A stretch of 9,320 nt of DNA from a virus (Duplodnaviria; Heunggongvirae; Uroviricota; Caudoviricetes), in IMG/VR virus record IMGVR_UViG_2651869781_000010, one strand, 5' to 3'. The notes beneath the pieces are model-generated. The model saw only the letters and a list, made by a program, of their open reading frames with translations, had not been told where the DNA came from and did no database searches. Every line of letters begins with the position of its first letter. Position 1 is the first letter of the stretch. Shown piece by piece: positions 1 through 8,912 of the stretch. A program made the translations under genes and the position numbers.

Positions 1-774
1 TATGTCAAAATTATCAAAATCGAAAGAATTGATTTTCTCATTAAATTCATCAAATTCCGCTTGTTTGATGCTTAATAAATCAGTTAACACCTCTTCTTCA
101 TCACCAACAAAGTTACCTACCTTTTCAATTAACTCTGATAACTTTTGTTTGTTTTTTTCTATTTCGTCACTAAGCTCATAATTACGAATTAAATTAGCAC
201 TATCAAACCCAAGCAGGTGACCTATGTATGGTTTCCAAAAAATGTGTTTTCCAATAAAATCTTTTAATCTAAATACATCAGTATAATCATCTTGCCCACG
301 CAGTGAATAGCCTAAGGCAGTCCGATAATCCCAACGCTTAATTACACTTAAATCAAAAAGTGCATCCAAACACTCTTTCGACCTCTCAAAGGGTAGCTCT
401 GGATAGTCCCATTCACTAACTGCTAAATCAGTAAAGTCTTGATGCTTCTGCTCATGTTTTATAATACTTATTTTTGTAGGTGAGGCAACTGAGCGACGAA
501 TCGTTACATAACCCCCTGAGTTAAGAGCCACTTCTAGATAAAAAACAAAACTCTCAAAAACATTAAAATTTTTAAATAAAAAATGATTTTTATTTTTTTT
601 CTTAAGTAAACAAAAATCTATTAGATCACATAATTTACTTTTCCCTAAATTATGCGTATCTTTGCCTCTATTCTCAGAACGTCTTATTTCACCGATAACT
701 ACATTAAGCCCATCATGAAACTTTATAGGACTAAAAACATCTTTTTTATTAGAGTAAATTTTTGATAGTTTCAT
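1..774 (-). CDS. ABC/SMC-type ATPase, N-terminal 258 codons only (gene continues past window start); candidate ATPase subunit of a Lamassu/ABC-3C-like system
   Basis: Hand translation of the minus strand from ATG at 774..772 gives MKLSKIYSNKKDVFSPIKFHDGLNVVIGEIRRSENRGKDTHNLGKSKLCDLIDFCLL..., which resembles the N-terminus of OLD/ABC-family ATPases (LNVxIGE ... GKS ... LIDF). The frame stays open to position 1. The ATG overlaps the TGA of the upstream 79-aa ORF (ATGA). The P-loop is non-canonical, with about 11 extra residues between GE and GKS. This ORF is absent from the supplied track because it is truncated. Confidence 0.55.
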   Translation of the reverse strand, partial: MKLSKIYSNKKDVFSPIKFHDGLNVVIGEIRRSENRGKDTHNLGKSKLCDLIDFCLLKKKNKNHFLFKNFNVFESFVFYLEVALNSGGYVTIRRSVASPTKISIIKHEQKHQDFTDLAVSEWDYPELPFERSKECLDALFDLSVIKRWDYRTALGYSLRGQDDYTDVFRLKDFIGKHIFWKPYIGHLLGFDSANLIRNYELSDEIEKNKQKLSELIEKVGNFVGDEEEVLTDLLSIKQAEFDEFNEKINSFDFDNFDI

Positions 775-1010
775 TTTTTAACCCACTCAATCAAATCATT
801 TTTAGAATGATATTCGATCAGACCTAATAAATATAACAAACCTAGTGCGGGGTTGAATAAGGAAATAGCTCGCTCATCATATTTCTCAAGTGCATCATAA
901 AGCTCAGCATATTTACCAAATTTAGCTTTGCGTAGCTTTTTCATTAAGAATGCAGCTACCGCCAAGACGGTCAAATCTGGATGTGAATTCTTATTAGGAA
1001 GCAAGCTCAC
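771..1010 (-). CDS. small (79 aa) helical protein, candidate middle component (LmuC/ABC-3C MC-like) of the three-gene system
   Basis: ORF from the track with GTG start at 1010..1008, preceded by AGGAG (complement of 1016-1020) at about 6 nt. It overlaps the upstream gene by 17 nt and the downstream ATPase by 4 nt (ATGA), indicating translational coupling. No recognisable catalytic motif. The functional label rests on size and position only. Confidence 0.55.
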   Translation of the reverse strand: MSLLPNKNSHPDLTVLAVAAFLMKKLRKAKFGKYAELYDALEKYDERAISLFNPALGLLYLLGLIEYHSKNDLIEWVKK

Positions 1011-1941
1011 AGCTATCTCCTATATCACAATTATAATACATATAGTAAACCATTATTCTTGTTAATTTTTTATTTTTGTGCAGATCTGAATCCCTTGCAA
1101 TCAGTAGTTCAATCATCACCTCGAGAATTCGATCAAAATCATGATAATCCTTTTTATAAACACATATTTTAGCTGCAAGCTCATCTGCGCTTTCAATATA
1201 TTTTTTTTGATATGCGCTATTATCAGGATGAGATAAAAAATCCGAAATTTCAGTAATCTCAGCGATTTTTTTCTTAATAAGCTCAGCGTAACTGTTGCTT
1301 AAGTTATTTATTTTATTTTTCTGTAGAAAATCCACTCTAAAAATATGTGATGAAATAGTCTTATCTGTTAATTTACCAAGAGATGTATTTATACCTATAA
1401 TAACTTCTGCCAGTTGTTCTGGATCGATATTAATAAGCACATCGAATGGGTTAAGACCGGCCATTTCAGGCACATGTGGAAATACCTTAAAGTACCTCTC
1501 CATAGTTTCTATCCCAATCAACCCTATGTTGAATTTATCTAACCCGGTTTGGGTACTTATAAAATCCAGAATGTTTTTATTTGCCTCAGCAGGTAGTCGT
1601 CTATTGGCAAACAACAAATAATTATTAATTTTATCTTCATCAATTAATTTTTGTATTTTTGGTAATTCTACATTCAAAACTGAGGTTGTATTACCAAAGA
1701 AATCAGCATCAGAAAATTTTCTGTTATGATTTATAGTATGCTTAGCCTGTATTATGGTTAAACCATCCCATGGCCTGGCTTTACTAGGGTATGCTTCAGC
1801 TACACCATCGAATCTTGAGTCACGTCCCCCATCCCGCCCATCAGCAAAGGATTGAGTTCCTATGCCTAAAAGATCATAGCAAAGGTAAACAACTAGGGTT
1901 TCAAATTGAAATGCCGATAAACTGCAGTAGTCATATTTCAT
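994..1941 (-). CDS. 315-aa protein with N-terminal Mrr-like PD-(D/E)xK nuclease motif plus a C-terminal helical domain of about 200 aa; candidate effector (LmuA-like)
   Basis: ATG at 1941..1939. The N-terminal segment ...SFADGRDGGRDSRFDG...(about 20 aa)...LTIIQAKH carries a DGGxD ... QxK pattern typical of the Mrr catalytic/restriction-endonuclease fold. It is the first gene of three overlapping genes. AT-rich codon usage matches the two downstream genes. Confidence 0.65.
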   Translation of the reverse strand: MKYDYCSLSAFQFETLVVYLCYDLLGIGTQSFADGRDGGRDSRFDGVAEAYPSKARPWDGLTIIQAKHTINHNRKFSDADFFGNTTSVLNVELPKIQKLIDEDKINNYLLFANRRLPAEANKNILDFISTQTGLDKFNIGLIGIETMERYFKVFPHVPEMAGLNPFDVLINIDPEQLAEVIIGINTSLGKLTDKTISSHIFRVDFLQKNKINNLSNSYAELIKKKIAEITEISDFLSHPDNSAYQKKYIESADELAAKICVYKKDYHDFDRILEVMIELLIARDSDLHKNKKLTRIMVYYMYYNCDIGDSCELAS

Positions 1942-1992
1942 GACTGTACCTTATTAAAAGTCAGCAGAATTGGAAAAAACATTAAGTTTGAA

Positions 1993-2022
1993 ATCATATA
2001 ATTGCCACTGAAATAATTTCAA
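1993..2022 (-). promoter_or_regulatory. candidate sigma70 promoter for the cargo operon
   Basis: On the minus strand: TTGAAA (2022..2017), a 16-18 nt spacer, then TATATG/TATGAT (2000..1993), about 55 nt upstream of the ATG at 1941. Found by eye in AT-rich DNA, so a chance match is plausible. Confidence 0.3.
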
Positions 2023-2300
2023 CAATCAACTTAATACTCAAAAATTTCAATGTGTTACTTTACCGCACAATGACGCAATAAACTCTGCAAAAAATCTATA
2101 AACGCATTTTTTTTGACAACTCGCACAGCCCCGCACGCCTGCCCGCTTCGCTTAACAGACTGGTTTTCATGCACCTCATAAATCGTCTCAGAAGCCACCA
2201 CACAAGGGCTTTCTCGTCAAAAATGGTGCATAAGGCTCATGCGTTTTCATGCGCCATAGACATGCACTCATGCGCTCTCAGGCCAGCCAGGGAAAAGGTG

Positions 2301-2348: not shown

Positions 2349-2621
2349 TCAGACAGGAATCTGCTGACGGCTTGACAGTTTTGACGCGGAGCCATAGCGA
2401 TTGAGCGTTTGCTGTTGTTTTACCGGGGCTTGTGATTTGTCTGGTTCCTGTTCATTGCGCCGGGGTTTCATGATTATCTTATCCACACTCTCCAGTGCCG
2501 TAAATGTGCAGGAACATTCCAGATTCTGGCACTGATACCACGAGCGTTTAACTGACGGAGCTTCATAGGCTGCTGTTCTGGCGTGTGCAACTGTACCGCA
2601 TTCCGGACATTTAAGTGCCAT
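2349..2621 (-). CDS. ogr: Ogr/Delta-family zinc-finger late-gene transcriptional activator (90 aa from the ATG)
   Basis: MALKCPECGTVAHARTAAYEAPSVKRSWYQCQNLECSCTFTALESV... carries the exact C-x2-C-x22-C-x4-C spacing and the AHxRT / YxQCxN / TFxxxESV motifs of P2 Ogr and P4 Delta. The track ORF begins at a GTG at 2630; the ATG at 2621..2619 with AGGAG 8 nt upstream is preferred. Single-domain, not duplicated as in P4 Delta. Confidence 0.85.
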   Translation of the reverse strand: MALKCPECGTVAHARTAAYEAPSVKRSWYQCQNLECSCTFTALESVDKIIMKPRRNEQEPDKSQAPVKQQQTLNRYGSASKLSSRQQIPV

Positions 2622-2626
2622 TAATA

Positions 2627-3178
2627 TCACTCCTGTATATCGTTAATGTCATTCAGGCGTTGCTGAAAACGCAGATGTTGTGCCGGGGTGTAAGAGCCCT
2701 GGCAATCACGAATCATCCCGGGGTCTGGCATCAAACCGGATTCATCCAGGATCTCACGATAATCCCCGGCAATTTCAGGCGGTGTTATTGCCAGCTGGCG
2801 AACCAGAGCACTGCGTAATATACGGGACGCAACGTCAACCCCTCCGCGCCCCTTCAGGAACGGAGCCAGTGCAGATGTCAGGGCTGCCCCATTCGCCTGC
2901 ATAAAATTGCTGAGAGCAGCTTCTGTGCAGGCCTCCATCAATAAATGCTGCGAGTAAATGCATTCGCGAGCAGCACAGTTAATTTGCCATTTCAGCACAT
3001 CCAGACGTTCCCGCAGTAATTCGAGCTGTCGGGCATAATCTGTTGGTTTTTCTGTGGCAGCGAGGAGAGATGCTATCTGTTGTTCAACGGCTTTTCGGGT
3101 CTCACTATGTCCGGCCCACAGAATACGGGCATTCCGAAAACTGGTAAGTGCCTGGTCAGGTGTGCCTCGGGCCGTCAT
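2627..3178 (-). CDS. psu: Psu-like protein (polarity suppression / capsid decoration), 183 aa
   Basis: All-helical 183-aa protein. Segments KWQINCAARECI, FMQANGAALTSALAPFL and YTPAQHLRF resemble P4 Psu as I remember it (KWQVNQAAGRYI, FMQQHGTALAAALAPEL, FTPAQNMIF). Length is close to P4 Psu (190 aa). The ATG overlaps the stop of the upstream gene (ATGA). The comparison is from memory, not from an alignment. Confidence 0.55.
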   Translation of the reverse strand: MTARGTPDQALTSFRNARILWAGHSETRKAVEQQIASLLAATEKPTDYARQLELLRERLDVLKWQINCAARECIYSQHLLMEACTEAALSNFMQANGAALTSALAPFLKGRGGVDVASRILRSALVRQLAITPPEIAGDYREILDESGLMPDPGMIRDCQGSYTPAQHLRFQQRLNDINDIQE

Positions 3179-3918
3179 ACAGCTTTCTCCTTCTCAGCAA
3201 GTTCCTGACGAACCTTTATTTTATGCATAGCTGCCGGAGAGAGTTGATTACTGAAATCCAGACGCGCCGCATAATCCGGGGCAACTCCCGCCAGTTTAAA
3301 CACCGGGTCCTGTTCAGGCATCGCATCGTTAGCCAGAGCCGGTCTGGTGATATGTTTATGAATAAAGTCTTTCAGCACTGTGTCCGGGTCATTAACTGAA
3401 TTCACCACACCCACAACGGCACTGGCTTCCCGGCCCATTGTGGATTTAAGCAGGCTCAGCGTCTGAATAAGCGCTTTTCCATGCGACTGCATAAAATCTT
3501 CCCAGATTTGTTTTGCGCGAATATCCACAAGAATGTTATGCGCGTGGATATACTTTCCGGCTAATTCCGCAGCTTTCTGCGGCAAAAGTGCATTTTCGCT
3601 TTCCTGAGCCGCCAGCAGCTCATCAAAATCCTCAAGCGTTTCTCGTCCCAGCGCAATTTCCGTGCGCAGTTTTTTCATTTCCTTTGAGACCACGCCCTGA
3701 CTTTCACGAAACAGCGTGCGCCACTCCTCATTCAGTGTGTTCGTCGTGGCTTCCATTTCAGCGCGACGCTGGCGGATTGTCGCAATATTATCCGCTGCAG
3801 CTTTCTGCTGACGACGTGCTTCAAGCCATGCGTTTCTGGCTGTGTTCATGGTTTCCAGTGCCCGCTGCGTTACAGCCGGAAAAGTGGAAAGGTTGTTATT
3901 CACTGCGGTGTTGTTCAT
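3175..3918 (-). CDS. 247-aa coiled-coil protein, putative Sid-like capsid size-determination scaffold (assigned by size and position only)
   Basis: ATG at 3918..3916 with AGGAG 6 nt upstream. Helical, charged, Ala/Glu/Arg-rich sequence. It is the first gene of the late operon directly behind the Ogr-type promoter, and P4 Sid is 244 aa. No sequence motif was recognised. Confidence 0.4.
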   Translation of the reverse strand: MNNTAVNNNLSTFPAVTQRALETMNTARNAWLEARRQQKAAADNIATIRQRRAEMEATTNTLNEEWRTLFRESQGVVSKEMKKLRTEIALGRETLEDFDELLAAQESENALLPQKAAELAGKYIHAHNILVDIRAKQIWEDFMQSHGKALIQTLSLLKSTMGREASAVVGVVNSVNDPDTVLKDFIHKHITRPALANDAMPEQDPVFKLAGVAPDYAARLDFSNQLSPAAMHKIKVRQELAEKEKAV

Positions 3919-4318: not shown

Positions 4319-6991
4319 TTAACCCGGCACCTCGCTGTTGAAGACATAGAGCCTGCGGGGATTCATCTCTGGCGGGCGAATGGTTGTCTGGAGTTTGCCA
4401 TCAGTGGAGGGCAGCAGGTATCCACGATCTACGCACAGACGCGCCACCTTGCGCGGGTCAAATCCCCTGCAGATTTCTTTCCAGCCGGACGGCATGACAT
4501 AGAACGTAGTGACAGCTTCCGTGCCCTGCGCGGTACTGCCTTTCTCCACCCTGCGCCAGCCCACCATATTGCCGGGGCGGTTGCGCTCGTCATACCAGTC
4601 TGCAAAGCGGCTGTACTGATTCGCGGTAAAGAAACTGCGAACCTGCTCCAGTGCGGCGATATCTTCCTGATTGGCGGTGTGCCCGCGATCTTTCAGCCAT
4701 GCGTTCAGGCAGACGCGGGTTGCCCGCAGTGCTTCACCCTCAGGCCAGCCGGTGATACCCAGACGGGTTGCCAGTTCACCTGCCATCGCCACCAGTGCAA
4801 AGCGGTTCACAGCCCGGCCCACCTGATTGCCTGCATCTTTAGGAGTCAGGGCGGCAGCATATTCCTTCATCAGCGATTTTGCCTGTGCCGTTAGTCCGTT
4901 AAGATCAGCGGTCAGTGCTTTCAGCCACTCCCGGAACGGCGAACCGTAGTAGCAGGACGTGGCCCATTCAAGATGCTCTGCCAGAGCCTTGCCGCTGTCG
5001 AAGCCGTGCAGCTCCTCAAAAACGCCAAACTTCCCGGAATCGCTTGGGATCTGGATCATCCTGACTTCCATCCCGGCAAAAGTACGCTCACCGGCCTTTG
5101 CCGCATGTTCGGTCAGAGACAACTCGCCAGTTGAAAAGAACAACAGGCGCCACTGCTTACGGGTACGCAGCTCACCGTCCGTACCGGCACGGCCCTTGCC
5201 CTGACCGTTTGCCAGCATGTAGGCGATATTGCCTGCCTCGCGTCCGTCAACTTCCCGGATCTCATCAAGCATCATGGCGGCATCGTTGCGGCGGCTGGCG
5301 CATCCCTCCAGCGCGTTGCCGGTGGCCCGCCATGTCTGCCAGTAGTCAGGCCCGCCGCAGACGGAGGTTGCCGCTTTCATGGTGGTGGTCTTACCGTCTG
5401 TCGATTCCCCTTTTAGGTGGTAGCCGCCGCCGTCCATACCAACCAGCCGTAACAGTGGTGCAGCAAAGGCCAGGCTGACAGCAAATGCCACGCGGGAGTT
5501 GCCGGTACAGTAGCGGGATACATGCTCCCGCCATTCCTCTGTTGTGCCCGACACGCGGAAATCACGCCCCTGCACGGAAGTGGTCTGGAGAATGACACCC
5601 TCTGCACCTTCACCGCTGACCTCATCCTGCAGGACGTAAACCTGACCATGCCAGCCAGTACGACTGACGCAGGTCACGCGGCGTTCCGGTTTACACAGTG
5701 AGATATATTCCATCAGGCGTGCGCGTGCCTCACCGGTGGTGCTGATATAAGACAGCCCGTTAACCAGCAGTACCCGGCGCAGTTCCTCACCACTGCCGCT
5801 CAGCATTTCCATCGGCATCGCCCAGCGGCGACACTCACCCCACGTATCTTCCCATTCCAGCAGTCGTCCGAAGTTACCGCCATCGGCATCGCAGGTGATT
5901 GCCGTCACGCGCAGCGGGCTGCATATTTTGACGTTCTGGATCTCCGTCTCACCGTTGCGCTGTACCTGCTTTTCATACCAGAGATATTCCTGGGTAAGAC
6001 GGAACCCGTGCGGCAGTTGCGTGCGGCCTTCCCCGCACAGTACCAGACCGTTGCGAAAGGCTTCACGGGCACGGGTAATACCGTGCTCCCGATGAAAGTC
6101 ATTCCAGTCAGCCTTAATCTCTCCTGGTGGCAGGGTCATCCAGCCGCCAACAGCTTTTGCCGCCCGTTCAGCAAAGGCTCTGCCGGGATTCTCACCCCCG
6201 TCCTGAAAATCGTTATCACCGGCGATGATAATTTTTACCTCAGGCCAGCGTGCCCGCAGCGACTGCGCCACATTGGGCAGGTTGCCCGCAGATATGGCAG
6301 CCACTACGCATCCGGCAGTGAGCTGGCTTACCGTCAGCGCCGTAGCGTAACCTTCGGTAATCACCACCTGTACCGGTGGTTCAGACGGTAACGGGCTGAG
6401 CGACACAAACGCGCCTTTCATCGTGCTGCCGGGCAGTATGCTTTTTTCACCCGTCGGGGCGATAAGCTGTGCACCGGTCACGGCTCCGGTGTTGGTCGTG
6501 AGTGGTAACAGCAGGGAACCGGTAGGAAAATCCTTACCGCTGATATGCTGCACGCTTCCGGTCAGAGAGGCCGGGTATCCGGCGAACCCTTTTCCTGTCA
6601 GATAGGCGCTTTCTCCCGTGTGGCTCTCTTTCATCAGCGCCGCCACGGTAAGACCCATGTCGCGTTTAGGGGCTTTTTGTCTGGCAGGCTTAACAGGCAG
6701 TTCCTGCACATCCGGCACATTAAGCACCTGCGCCACCTCCTGCGCAGCCTTTCTGACGCTGTAACCGGTTACGAGCTTAACCAGATCCAGACCGTCACCA
6801 TTGCCACACTGGCTGCAGATCCACGTCCCGCGCCCGTCAAGGTCATCAAGGCGAAAACGATCCTTGCCCCCACATTTCGGGCAGGGACCGTGCCTGCCGT
6901 TTTCAGGTACATCAATACGCAGCATCTGCAGAATAACGGGCCATTTCCCCCGTGCGGCGGCTGAAATCTGCGTAACCGTCTGTATTGTCAT
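4319..6991 (-). CDS. P4 alpha-like primase/helicase (N-terminal zinc ribbon, TOPRIM primase domain, SF3/D5-type P-loop NTPase), 890 aa
   Basis: CPKCGG...CSQCG zinc ribbon near the N-terminus. VVITEGYATALT and IIAGDNDFQDGGENPG are TOPRIM acidic motifs. Walker A GESTDGKTT lies mid-protein. The ATG at 6991 overlaps the upstream stop (ATGA) and has a GAGGGGG Shine-Dalgarno sequence. The iterons lie just downstream. Confidence 0.9.
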   Translation of the reverse strand: MTIQTVTQISAAARGKWPVILQMLRIDVPENGRHGPCPKCGGKDRFRLDDLDGRGTWICSQCGNGDGLDLVKLVTGYSVRKAAQEVAQVLNVPDVQELPVKPARQKAPKRDMGLTVAALMKESHTGESAYLTGKGFAGYPASLTGSVQHISGKDFPTGSLLLPLTTNTGAVTGAQLIAPTGEKSILPGSTMKGAFVSLSPLPSEPPVQVVITEGYATALTVSQLTAGCVVAAISAGNLPNVAQSLRARWPEVKIIIAGDNDFQDGGENPGRAFAERAAKAVGGWMTLPPGEIKADWNDFHREHGITRAREAFRNGLVLCGEGRTQLPHGFRLTQEYLWYEKQVQRNGETEIQNVKICSPLRVTAITCDADGGNFGRLLEWEDTWGECRRWAMPMEMLSGSGEELRRVLLVNGLSYISTTGEARARLMEYISLCKPERRVTCVSRTGWHGQVYVLQDEVSGEGAEGVILQTTSVQGRDFRVSGTTEEWREHVSRYCTGNSRVAFAVSLAFAAPLLRLVGMDGGGYHLKGESTDGKTTTMKAATSVCGGPDYWQTWRATGNALEGCASRRNDAAMMLDEIREVDGREAGNIAYMLANGQGKGRAGTDGELRTRKQWRLLFFSTGELSLTEHAAKAGERTFAGMEVRMIQIPSDSGKFGVFEELHGFDSGKALAEHLEWATSCYYGSPFREWLKALTADLNGLTAQAKSLMKEYAAALTPKDAGNQVGRAVNRFALVAMAGELATRLGITGWPEGEALRATRVCLNAWLKDRGHTANQEDIAALEQVRSFFTANQYSRFADWYDERNRPGNMVGWRRVEKGSTAQGTEAVTTFYVMPSGWKEICRGFDPRKVARLCVDRGYLLPSTDGKLQTTIRPPEMNPRRLYVFNSEVPG

Positions 6992-7683: not shown

Positions 7684-8043
7684 TCAGAGAAACTTTGAAT
7701 AGTGACCGTCGTCAGGCTCAGCAGAACGCCATATGCTACGCTCCCGCCAGCGGATAAATAGCACAGACGGATGCAGTGTCAGCGGGCCGGAACCACTACC
7801 GCCTGCAGGAGCTGGTGCAGGCTTAAAGAGCGGTACATCAAACAGGCGCGTATACCGCTGTTCAAACCATGCCAGAGGGCAGGAAGAAAGCTGGTTGTCG
7901 CTGTCATGACGTATCAGCACTTCACAGCTGAATTCAGGATTAACCAGCGCCACAGAGGGCGAGGCTTTAATTAATCGGATAATCGTGACCGTCCAGCCAC
8001 GTTCATGCTGCCAGCGTTCGCCGGGTTGCGGATAATTACGCAT
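7684..8043 (-). CDS. hypothetical protein (119 aa from the ATG), primase-operon gene
   Basis: The track ORF starts at a TTG at 8073. The ATG at 8043..8041 (MRNYPQPGERW...) with GGAGG 5-6 nt upstream is preferred. Contains a Pro/Gly-rich linker (KPAPAPAGGSGSGP). Confidence 0.55.
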   Translation of the reverse strand: MRNYPQPGERWQHERGWTVTIIRLIKASPSVALVNPEFSCEVLIRHDSDNQLSSCPLAWFEQRYTRLFDVPLFKPAPAPAGGSGSGPLTLHPSVLFIRWRERSIWRSAEPDDGHYSKFL

Positions 8044-8212
8044 GTTCACCTCCGCAGGGAATGCGCCCGGCAAAGCTCAGTACATAGTCCGGGGCAAGTC
8101 TGCGCCGCGCTGATCGCTCGTTATCTGCGGTGATCCTTAACATCACCGGACGGGCATTACGTTGACTGCGGTTGATCGCCGCAAATAACCAGGTACACTT
8201 CTCTTTAGCCAT
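8036..8212 (-). CDS. small hypothetical protein (58 aa), first ORF of the primase operon
   Basis: ATG at 8212..8210 with GAGG 9 nt upstream. Translates as MAKEKCTWLFAAINRSQRNARPVMLRITADNERSARRRLAPDYVLSFAGRIPCGGEHA. Its TAA (8038..8036) overlaps the ATG of the next gene by 8 nt. It is the 3' part of the 244-aa track ORF 8036..8770, whose upstream portion looks spurious. Confidence 0.35.
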   Translation of the reverse strand: MAKEKCTWLFAAINRSQRNARPVMLRITADNERSARRRLAPDYVLSFAGRIPCGGEHA

Positions 8213-8287
8213 CTTCGTTGCCTCATATAGCGGTTTGGTCAGAAGCCCGGTTAGTGTTGCTGCACTGTCGGGCTTCGCACTCACAAG

Positions 8288-8380
8288 GTGAATCGCACCT
8301 TCACTTTTAAAGCTACCCTTAAGTGAATCGCACTTCAAGTCTTTTATTATCATTTTTTTTGCGTATACTGAATCGCACCT
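8288..8380. promoter_or_regulatory. divergent control region: three direct repeats (candidate operators) plus the -10 element of the plus-strand regulator gene
   Basis: GTGAATCGCACCT (8288-8300), GTGAATCGCACTT (8323-8335) and CTGAATCGCACCT (8368-8380). The third overlaps a TATACT -10 (8364-8369) located 30 nt upstream of the ATG at 8400, which has AAGGAG at 8386-8391. The region separates the primase operon (minus) from the RHH-like gene (plus). Confidence 0.5.
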
Positions 8381-8399
8381 AACGCAAGGAGATCCAGTA

Positions 8400-8585
8400 A
8401 TGGCAACGGGTTCAACTAACAACAAGTCGCAGCAACTTAATGCTCGTTTCCCACATGATGTAGTTGCAGAATTAGAAAGCAACCTTGAAGATGGGGAAAC
8501 GAAAGCGCAATTTATTGTTACCGCTGTAAAAGGCGAGATTAAACGCCGACAGCGCAGGAAAAATAAGCTAGAGCAAGTAAGCTGA
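8400..8585 (+). CDS. small DNA-binding regulator, probably ribbon-helix-helix type (61 aa)
   Basis: ATG at 8400 with AAGGAG 8 nt upstream. The segment QLNARFPHDVVAELESNLEDGETKAQFIVTAVKGEI has a strand-helix-helix pattern typical of Arc/CopG-like proteins, followed by a basic tail (KRRQRRKNK). A terminator follows. Confidence 0.55.
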   Translation: MATGSTNNKSQQLNARFPHDVVAELESNLEDGETKAQFIVTAVKGEIKRRQRRKNKLEQVS

Positions 8586-8648
8586 ATAGAGAAGCGAATA
8601 GACGTTCTCTCAGATTCCATGCTAATTTCAGTAAGCGACAATATTTTT

Positions 8649-8680
8649 AAGCCCACAAACTCATTTTGTCGGGCTTTTTT
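8649..8680 (+). terminator. Rho-independent terminator after the RHH-like gene
   Basis: Stem AAGCCCACA (8649-8657) / TGTcGGGCTT (8667-8676) with a one-base bulge and a 9-nt loop, followed by a T-run (8675-8680). It sits between the convergent RHH-like and AlpA-like genes. Confidence 0.5.
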
Positions 8681-8681
8681 A

Positions 8682-8912
8682 TTAGTGATTTTCATGCCGT
8701 TCACCACGAGAGGCATATATTTGCTCTTGAATCCAGTGATCGACTTCGCTTTCAACAAATGAAATTGCACGAGTTCCTATTTTCACCGGGCGGGGAAATG
8801 TATTGTTTGAAAGCTGTTTGTAAAGCCATGCCTTGCTACGCTGAACGCGTCTTAACACCTCTTTTGCTGAGATAAGGGTCTGATTCTCTGAAAGGTTGTT
8901 TGCATATTCCAT
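8682..8912 (-). CDS. alpA: AlpA/Vis-family phage transcriptional regulator / excisionase-like protein (76 aa from the ATG)
   Basis: ISAKEVLRRVQRSKAWLYKQLSNNTFPRPVKIGTRAISFVESEVDHWIQEQI matches the AlpA/Vis helix-turn-helix signature (...S.STIYR....G.FP.PIKLG.R...W...E...WI). The track ORF begins at a GTG at 8957. The ATG at 8912..8910 with GGAG 8 nt upstream is preferred. Confidence 0.8.
   Translation of the reverse strand: MEYANNLSENQTLISAKEVLRRVQRSKAWLYKQLSNNTFPRPVKIGTRAISFVESEVDHWIQEQIYASRGERHENH

Follow-up and report, generated by a model that had tools for sequence, protein, structure and literature searches.

Near the left end of the 9,320-nucleotide (nt) Caudoviricetes record IMGVR_UViG_2651869781_000010 (the whole of this stretch is called the window below) lies a small cassette, in which a gene for a 315-amino acid (aa) protein is followed by a gene for a 79-aa protein and by the first part of an ATPase gene, and the question raised by this locus is what the 315-aa protein is and to which kind of system it belongs. 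A preliminary description had seen in it a candidate effector, consisting of a compact Mrr-type nuclease fused to an "uncharacterised" helical domain. Our analysis indicates that the protein probably serves as an LmuA-type effector in a short type II Lamassu (ABC-three-component, ABC-3C) anti-phage system, carried as cargo by a satellite, and the cassette is a variant of a well-described defence system rather than a new kind. Family names for the object already exist in public databases: an identical effector protein is present in NCBI as "ABC-three component system protein", and the RefSeq names of the corresponding trio in E. coli APEC E19025 are "ABC-three component system protein", "ABC-three component system middle component 8" and "DUF2326 domain-containing protein"; NCBIfam has no family assigned to the effector, the 79-aa protein or the ATPase. 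The open reading frames (ORFs) of the effector and the 79-aa protein overlap by 17 nt, and the ATPase ORF begins at position 774 via an ATGA overlap with the preceding frame and leaves the window at base 1 (Table 1).

The effector consists of two modules joined by a short linker, an Mrr-type nuclease head and the C-terminal domain CTD12 of ABC-3C systems. A homologue search of 5.8 billion proteins yielded 46 effector homologues, 40 of which were aligned (36-83% identity). The motifs DGGRD (residues 37-41) and QAKH (residues 65-68), separated by 23 residues, are strongly conserved among these 40 sequences: D37, D41, Q65, K67, H68 and T69 are invariant, while G38, G39, R40, A66 and the F13-E14 pair in helix 1 are kept in at least 90%, with F13 and E14 being invariant in a 32-sequence alignment of the N-terminus. 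This degree of conservation takes the two motifs beyond what chance would produce. A default Pfam scan of the effector found nothing for the first 160 residues, and when the homologues were compared with Mrr_cat (PF04471), 32 of the 40 gave a match at E<=1 (best E 7.2e-6).

Since searches of PDB sequences with the effector, the full-length profile, the head profile and the full ATPase gave nothing meaningful, the fold was assigned from structure prediction. AlphaFold2 modelled residues 1-162 using the family alignment, with a predicted local distance difference test (pLDDT) value of 91.7 and a predicted template modelling score (pTM) of 0.87, and with the order helix 10-24, strand 40-47, strand 59-67, helix 88-103, strand 107-112 and a final helix-strand-helix, which contains the alpha-beta-beta-beta-alpha-beta core of the restriction-endonuclease fold. 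D41 opens the second core strand and Q65-x-K67 closes the third, both of which are the canonical positions. With conserved motif residues at canonical positions of the fold, the preliminary description was right in calling DGGRD and QAKH an Mrr-type PD-(D/E)xK signature and in expecting a restriction-endonuclease-like fold around it, and E14, D37, D41 and Q65-x-K67 are the proposed active-site set of a head with predicted nuclease activity. It underestimated the size of this domain, which takes up about 160 aa in the model instead of about 100 aa. Structurally, the head resembles the cleavage domain of FokI, which depends on dimerisation. In FokI, one PD-(D/E)xK head provides one active site, and a second head is needed for cutting both strands.

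For the C-terminal part, residues 167-308 match the curated Pfam family PF20279 (CTD12 of ABC-three-component systems) with an E-value of 4.6e-51 and 173.5 bits against a cut-off of 25, and this match is present in all 46 homologues, hence also in all 40 aligned sequences, in which R202, K208, N209, N212, Y248, M301, Y302, C305, D306 and G308 are invariant. The domain is helical in the AlphaFold2 model, and residues 161-315 contain 12.3% isoleucine, 10.3% leucine, 9.7% lysine and 9.0% aspartate, so that the earlier description of a helical region rich in isoleucine, lysine and aspartate stands, but neither its extent (about 200 aa, or two-thirds of the protein, where about 150 aa are found) nor the absence of a recognisable motif does, as the domain belongs to a curated family and the protein is named in NCBI.

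The recent literature equates ABC-3C with type II Lamassu, composed of LmuA, LmuC and LmuB (bioRxiv 10.1101/2025.06.23.660979; 10.1101/2025.03.14.643221), and divides the LmuA C-terminal domains into classes CTD1-12 and LmuC into classes MC1-8 (bioRxiv 10.1101/2025.03.14.643221). Because the C-terminal domain is the PF20279 CTD12 and type II Lamassu is ABC-3C, its assignment as an LmuA-like domain predicted to dock on the ATPase is now supported by homology and not merely by the analogy from which it was originally proposed. Effectors with an Mrr-type head have a precedent in Lamassu, as they were listed by Millman et al. (bioRxiv 10.1101/2022.05.11.491447), and the Lamassu-Mrr system of E. 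coli SE15 gives abortive-infection defence which requires the effector, LmuC and the ATPase (bioRxiv 10.1101/2022.05.11.491447). The top Foldseek match to the full-length model was 9nxx_D (E 6.3e-4, probability 0.99), which is the V. cholerae LmuA tetramer (PMC12663957), yet with a template modelling (TM) score of 0.27, which is low because the orientation of the domains differs; the head alone gave an E-value of 0.09. It is on the literature equation, the Mrr-headed precedent and this structural match that we base the probable identification of the gene as LmuA of a short type II Lamassu system. The third-best Foldseek match to the full-length model was PDB 9a6c_B (E 8.5e-3, probability 0.98), an integrative model of B. 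subtilis YydD-YydB, which hints that yydB and yydD may form a further ABC-3C/Lamassu-like system; a search of the literature on this point yielded nothing useful.

The partners of the effector fit the same family. The 79-aa protein matches Pfam MC8 (E 1.7e-14) and MC6 (E 1.9e-10), and the 258 N-terminal residues of the ATPase within the window match the PADLOC models PDC-M68B (E 1.9e-17) and LmuB (E 1.4e-8). E. coli APEC E19025 has a full-length copy of the ATPase (595 aa, L001:10987-12774, minus strand), which is 98% identical over the overlap. The match to PDC-M68B extends over the whole of this copy (E 1.8e-46), its C-terminal part is recognised by Pfam DUF2326 (E 8.3e-22), and its heads are split by a long helical middle. 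The P-loop of this ATPase reads D[TS]HNLGK[ST] and is directly preceded by an insertion of about 11 residues (VIGE-IRRSENRGKDTH-NLGKS), the length of which is constant in six DUF2326-type ATPases from unrelated genomes, and which is absent from LmuB of both Lamassu-Mrr systems in Millman et al. The ATPase has a non-canonical Walker B-like motif, hhhhDGxxE (D-G-x-x-E), and does not contain a CxxC zinc hook.

The order of effector, MC8 and ATPase of about 595 aa is kept for homologues with 39-55% identity located in unrelated neighbourhoods, these being an integrase with a reverse transcriptase, core metabolic genes and a resolvase; in each of the five further genomic contexts inspected, the gene after the CTD12 gene encodes an MC8 of 72-82 aa, and the A-C-B gene order was likewise seen in loci L001-L008. 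The heads were found to vary on this constant set of genes. Searching with a profile restricted to the C-terminal domain retrieved CTD12 proteins of just 165-270 aa, among them a 246-aa protein with a 95-residue N-terminus without Pfam match and a 180-aa "headless" protein that is essentially CTD12 alone and lies in a prophage beside cI/cro-like helix-turn-helix (HTH) genes; for both proteins, the genes for MC8 and for an ATPase of about 596 aa come next. Such headless or short-headed cassettes may correspond to the effector-less Lamassu clade of PMC12663957. In the opposite direction, a search with the head profile retrieved 2,082 cluster representatives at E<=1e-3, which for the most part are about 315 aa long. 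Nine longer proteins (431-1,199 aa; E 1e-37 to 1e-42 against the head profile) were inspected, and in eight of them the head is fused to an NB-ARC STAND NTPase, mostly with additional TPR or WD40 repeats, while in the ninth (573 aa) the head alone was seen. The PADLOC single-gene candidate PDC-S73 also shares the Mrr-like head. As the CTD12/MC8/ATPase chassis occurs with other heads or with none, the head is an exchangeable effector, and as it is common to this chassis and to oligomerising STAND sensors, it is also a portable one.

We compared the cassette with the systems it most resembles. With V. cholerae DdmABC and S. enterica LmuACB it shares an effector, a small middle component and an SMC-like ABC ATPase of about 600 aa, in that order, as well as an effector composed of an N-terminal nuclease of the PD-(D/E)xK superfamily and a helical ABC-3C C-terminal domain, whereas it differs from both in its DUF2326-type ATPase with the insertion before the P-loop and without a zinc hook. 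The Lamassu-Mrr system of E. coli O150:H5 SE15 has in common with it the Mrr-type head, the FE…D-GRD…Q-x-K-H register (QCKHY in SE15), LmuC and LmuB, and an E. coli host; the SE15 LmuA is a 379-aa protein with a 45-residue N-terminal extension and a CTD6, paired with a 168-aa LmuC of the winged-helix MC2 type. Comparison of SE15 LmuA with the present family at profile level gave an E-value of 0.079 over 59 columns, which are limited to the motif region, and no DNA similarity was found across 5,426 E. coli genomes that would make SE15 Lamassu-Mrr a close relative. The PADLOC candidate PDC-M68 is the counterpart of the CTD12/MC8/DUF2326 chassis in its forms with a short head or none: the ATPase is PDC-M68B from end to end, while PDC-M68A (models of 200-253 positions) aligns weakly with the C-terminal domain (E 0.018-0.025) and leaves the full Mrr head of the present effector uncovered. 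Avs4-type and other Mrr-headed STAND NTPases, as well as PDC-S73, differ in being single-chain sensors, with a STAND ATPase acting as sensor and oligomeriser in cis instead of an SMC-like ATPase and an adaptor in trans.

There are also observations which weigh against the assignment as a Lamassu effector, or against a direct transfer of what is known from the solved systems. The isolated head scores 12.8 bits against Mrr_cat (E 0.13), which is below the Pfam cut-off of 21, and by sequence it is a divergent relative of this family that falls short of formal membership. None of the PADLOC v2.0.0 LmuA models matched the effector at E<=1, and with the full-length ATPase only the candidate PDC-M68B matched in PADLOC, and no LmuB model was listed. 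No LmuA or LmuB chain in the PDB was found with the family profiles at sequence level; the ATPase gave no sequence match to solved LmuB, and the present proteins have no detectable sequence similarity to the solved Lamassu chains. The solved LmuA heads are Cap4, and those of V. cholerae and S. enterica are linked to CTD7, whereas the cassette described here combines an Mrr head with CTD12 and has a 79-aa MC8 in place of MC3. The assignment of CTD12 to the B. cellulasensis LmuA (type I, solved) in a preprint was not confirmed, since the CTD-profile matches were short or headless and for none of them was a Cap4 Pfam domain listed. Membership in the validated Lamassu-Mrr subtype was considered and rejected, as SE15 combines CTD6 with MC2 and not CTD12 with MC8. 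Because of the insertion of about 11 residues and the non-canonical Walker B, the ATPase cycle may differ, and experiments on the CTD12/MC8/DUF2326 branch were not found in the literature library searched. The filing of the ATPase under PDC-M68 only, the unrecognised LmuA, the conserved insertion, the Walker B and the headless chassis are also the grounds for a reading in which CTD12/MC8/DUF2326 systems form a Lamassu lineage with a function of its own, which could respond to another trigger than DNA ends, or work without the ATP-driven release and tetramerisation of CTD7 systems; we consider this unlikely.

In the cryo-electron microscopy structures of the V. cholerae, S. enterica and B. cellulasensis Lamassu complexes, one LmuA is held as a monomer with a head that is nearly free of contacts, its C-terminal domain is sequestered on LmuB/LmuC, DNA-end binding and ATP turnover free LmuA, and the freed C-terminal domains tetramerise, which brings two heads together into one active site and results in non-specific DNA cutting (PMC12663957; bioRxiv 10.1101/2025.06.23.660979; 10.1101/2025.03.14.643221). 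The present analysis shows what the domains are, which fold the head has, that the catalytic residues and the three-gene operon are conserved, and that the cassette lies on a satellite, and by homology with the solved complexes we infer complex formation, trigger, oligomerisation, DNA substrate and abortive outcome. In an uninfected cell, one effector would be kept as an inactive monomer, with its CTD12 clamped by MC8 and the coiled coils of an SMC-like ATPase dimer. The ATPase and the middle component would sense products of phage replication such as DNA ends and release the effector, upon which the freed C-terminal domains would oligomerise (into a tetramer in the solved cases), allowing two heads to pair into a site that cleaves double-stranded DNA. 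Such cleavage would be without sequence specificity and would abort the infection. This logic of release and pairing fits the locus because the head is FokI-like, because STAND proteins reuse the same head, and because the head is exchangeable on a constant chassis.

One alternative, with the same components, is that the nuclease acts while attached to the ATPase complex, in the manner of Mre11 on Rad50/SbcC or JetD on Wadjet, giving a targeted restriction of the sensed DNA. Lamassu has been proposed to descend from SbcCD (PMC12663957), and with C-terminal domain and middle component types of its own and an unusual P-loop region in this branch, extrapolation from CTD7 systems is not guaranteed. 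The attached nuclease also lies close to the preliminary description, in which the partners were thought to supply target recognition. This part of that description does not agree with the solved systems, where the partners sense DNA ends and restrain the effector, and the freed tetramer cuts non-specifically (PMC12663957; bioRxiv 10.1101/2025.03.14.643221). In both solved type II complexes as well as in the type I complex, the head is almost without partner contact and activation follows only after release; STAND NTPases, which use the same head, activate their effectors via oligomerisation, and a single head would, as in FokI, need a partner head for cutting both strands. We therefore regard cleavage by an attached nuclease as quite improbable. 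Even less probable is that the head cleaves RNA (tRNA or rRNA) or merely binds nucleic acid, leading to translation arrest or sensing and not to DNA degradation; we give this reading hardly any weight.

Another view concerns the purpose of the cassette, the main role of which could be plasmid elimination, or competition of the satellite with its helper or with other satellites, and not defence against unrelated phages. The V. cholerae Lamassu system (DdmABC) also eliminates plasmids (bioRxiv 10.1101/2022.05.11.491447; 10.1101/2025.03.14.643221), and the cassette is borne by a satellite, with cargo at the psu-int locus having been proposed to serve inter-viral competition (PMC9122126). Furthermore, in one study 28 phages were tested against a P4-borne Lamassu variant and no protection was seen (PMC13586616), but this variant was described without a known effector and is probably not the present system. 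The operon is also found off satellites, beside core metabolic genes and resolvases, and a role of this kind would concern the selective context and not the mechanism, so that it is compatible with a Lamassu effector released upon sensing of phage products; as the main role of the cassette we consider it very unlikely.

Table 1. Position of the cassette, its domains and motifs, the satellite genes in the window, and related cassettes and proteins found elsewhere.
Feature	Position	Strand	Basis or remark
LmuA-like effector gene, 315 aa	994..1941	-	ATG at 1941, stop at 994; ORF and Pfam CTD12
Nuclease head, residues 1-160, PD-(D/E)xK fold, Mrr branch	1462..1941	-	
D37-G-G-R-D41, putative metal-binding acidic motif, start of strand 2	1819..1833	-	
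Q65-A-K67-H68, Q-x-K variant of (D/E)xK, end of strand 3	1738..1749	-	
CTD12, residues 167-308, predicted helical docking/oligomerisation domain of ABC-3C/Lamassu effectors	1018..1443	-	PF20279
LmuC-like middle component MC8, 79 aa	771..1010	-	Pfam
LmuB-like SMC/ABC ATPase, N-terminal 258 aa, cut by window edge	1..774	-	PADLOC
Promoter-like site upstream of effector gene, TTGAAA / 18 nt / TATGAT	1993..2022	-	Consensus scan 10/12, pattern match only
Low-GC cargo block downstream of delta/psu	1..2100	n/a	Composition
Ogr/Delta	2349..2630		Pfam
Psu, full match (E 2.3e-44)	2627..3178	-	Pfam
Psu-related Sid-like gene, partial match (E 1.8e-9)	3175..3918	-	Pfam
Alpha primase-helicase	4319..6991		Pfam
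Headless and short-headed CTD12/MC8/ATPase cassettes	L008:5001-7583 and L007:5001-7756		
Head at N-terminus of NB-ARC STAND NTPases	Proteins P0182, P0184, P0185, P0188, P0190, P0194, P0211, P0221		

The remainder of the window is a P4-like satellite according to Pfam, which besides the genes listed in Table 1 encodes DUF5375 and AlpA. The cassette is located just downstream of delta and has a GC content of 0.33, versus 0.55 for the satellite core, and an equivalent P4-like element is present in E. coli APEC E19025, where it lies at a tRNA-Leu gene with an integrase and again has the cassette after delta. Rousset et al. described the psu-int region as a hotspot of anti-phage cargo (PMC9122126), and both the location and the foreign composition of the cassette fit cargo of this hotspot, the far boundary of which is beyond the window. 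In complete E. coli genomes the cassette is rare, with DNA searches finding it in 2 of 5,426, both near-identical copies. A close variant is recorded for 1,000 contigs or more, and Salmonella accounts for most of the named members of its cluster.

Some further observations were made on the satellite and its surroundings. The two Psu-family genes are arranged in tandem, and the second is probably the capsid-size gene of the satellite, similar to sid. In E. coli APEC E19025, the region corresponding to that past the left edge of the window (L001:1-10525) contains a pseudogene for an integrase Arm domain, a type I restriction-modification methylase with its S subunit, a ParB/Srx protein and the end of a BREX-1 system (pglZ, brxL), and as restriction-modification and BREX-1 genes continue past the cassette, the satellite abuts a larger defence island in that genome. 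Within the window, GC content falls between a DUF4222-like gene and AlpA, and this region is spanned by a 244-codon ORF (8036..8770, minus strand), with which a 61-codon ORF on the opposite strand (8400..8585) overlaps. The genes that RefSeq annotates in the equivalent region of E. coli are all small (Icd-like, YlcI/YnfO and an HTH regulator), and the 244-codon ORF is for this reason probably spurious.

A protein that at first resembled a compact orphan nuclease with a tail of unknown nature is thus a standard two-module Lamassu effector, with an exchangeable killing head and a domain predicted to serve docking and oligomerisation. There is a gap in PADLOC v2.0.0, the Lamassu models of which miss the CTD12/MC8/DUF2326 branch. 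The practical value of the finding is modest, as it adds one module combination, an Mrr head with CTD12, MC8 and a DUF2326 ATPase, which is apparently untested. This combination is common in Salmonella and is carried on P4-like satellites, and it makes a reasonable candidate for probing whether the sequestration, release and tetramerisation known from the systems with Cap4 and CTD7 extend across Lamassu.
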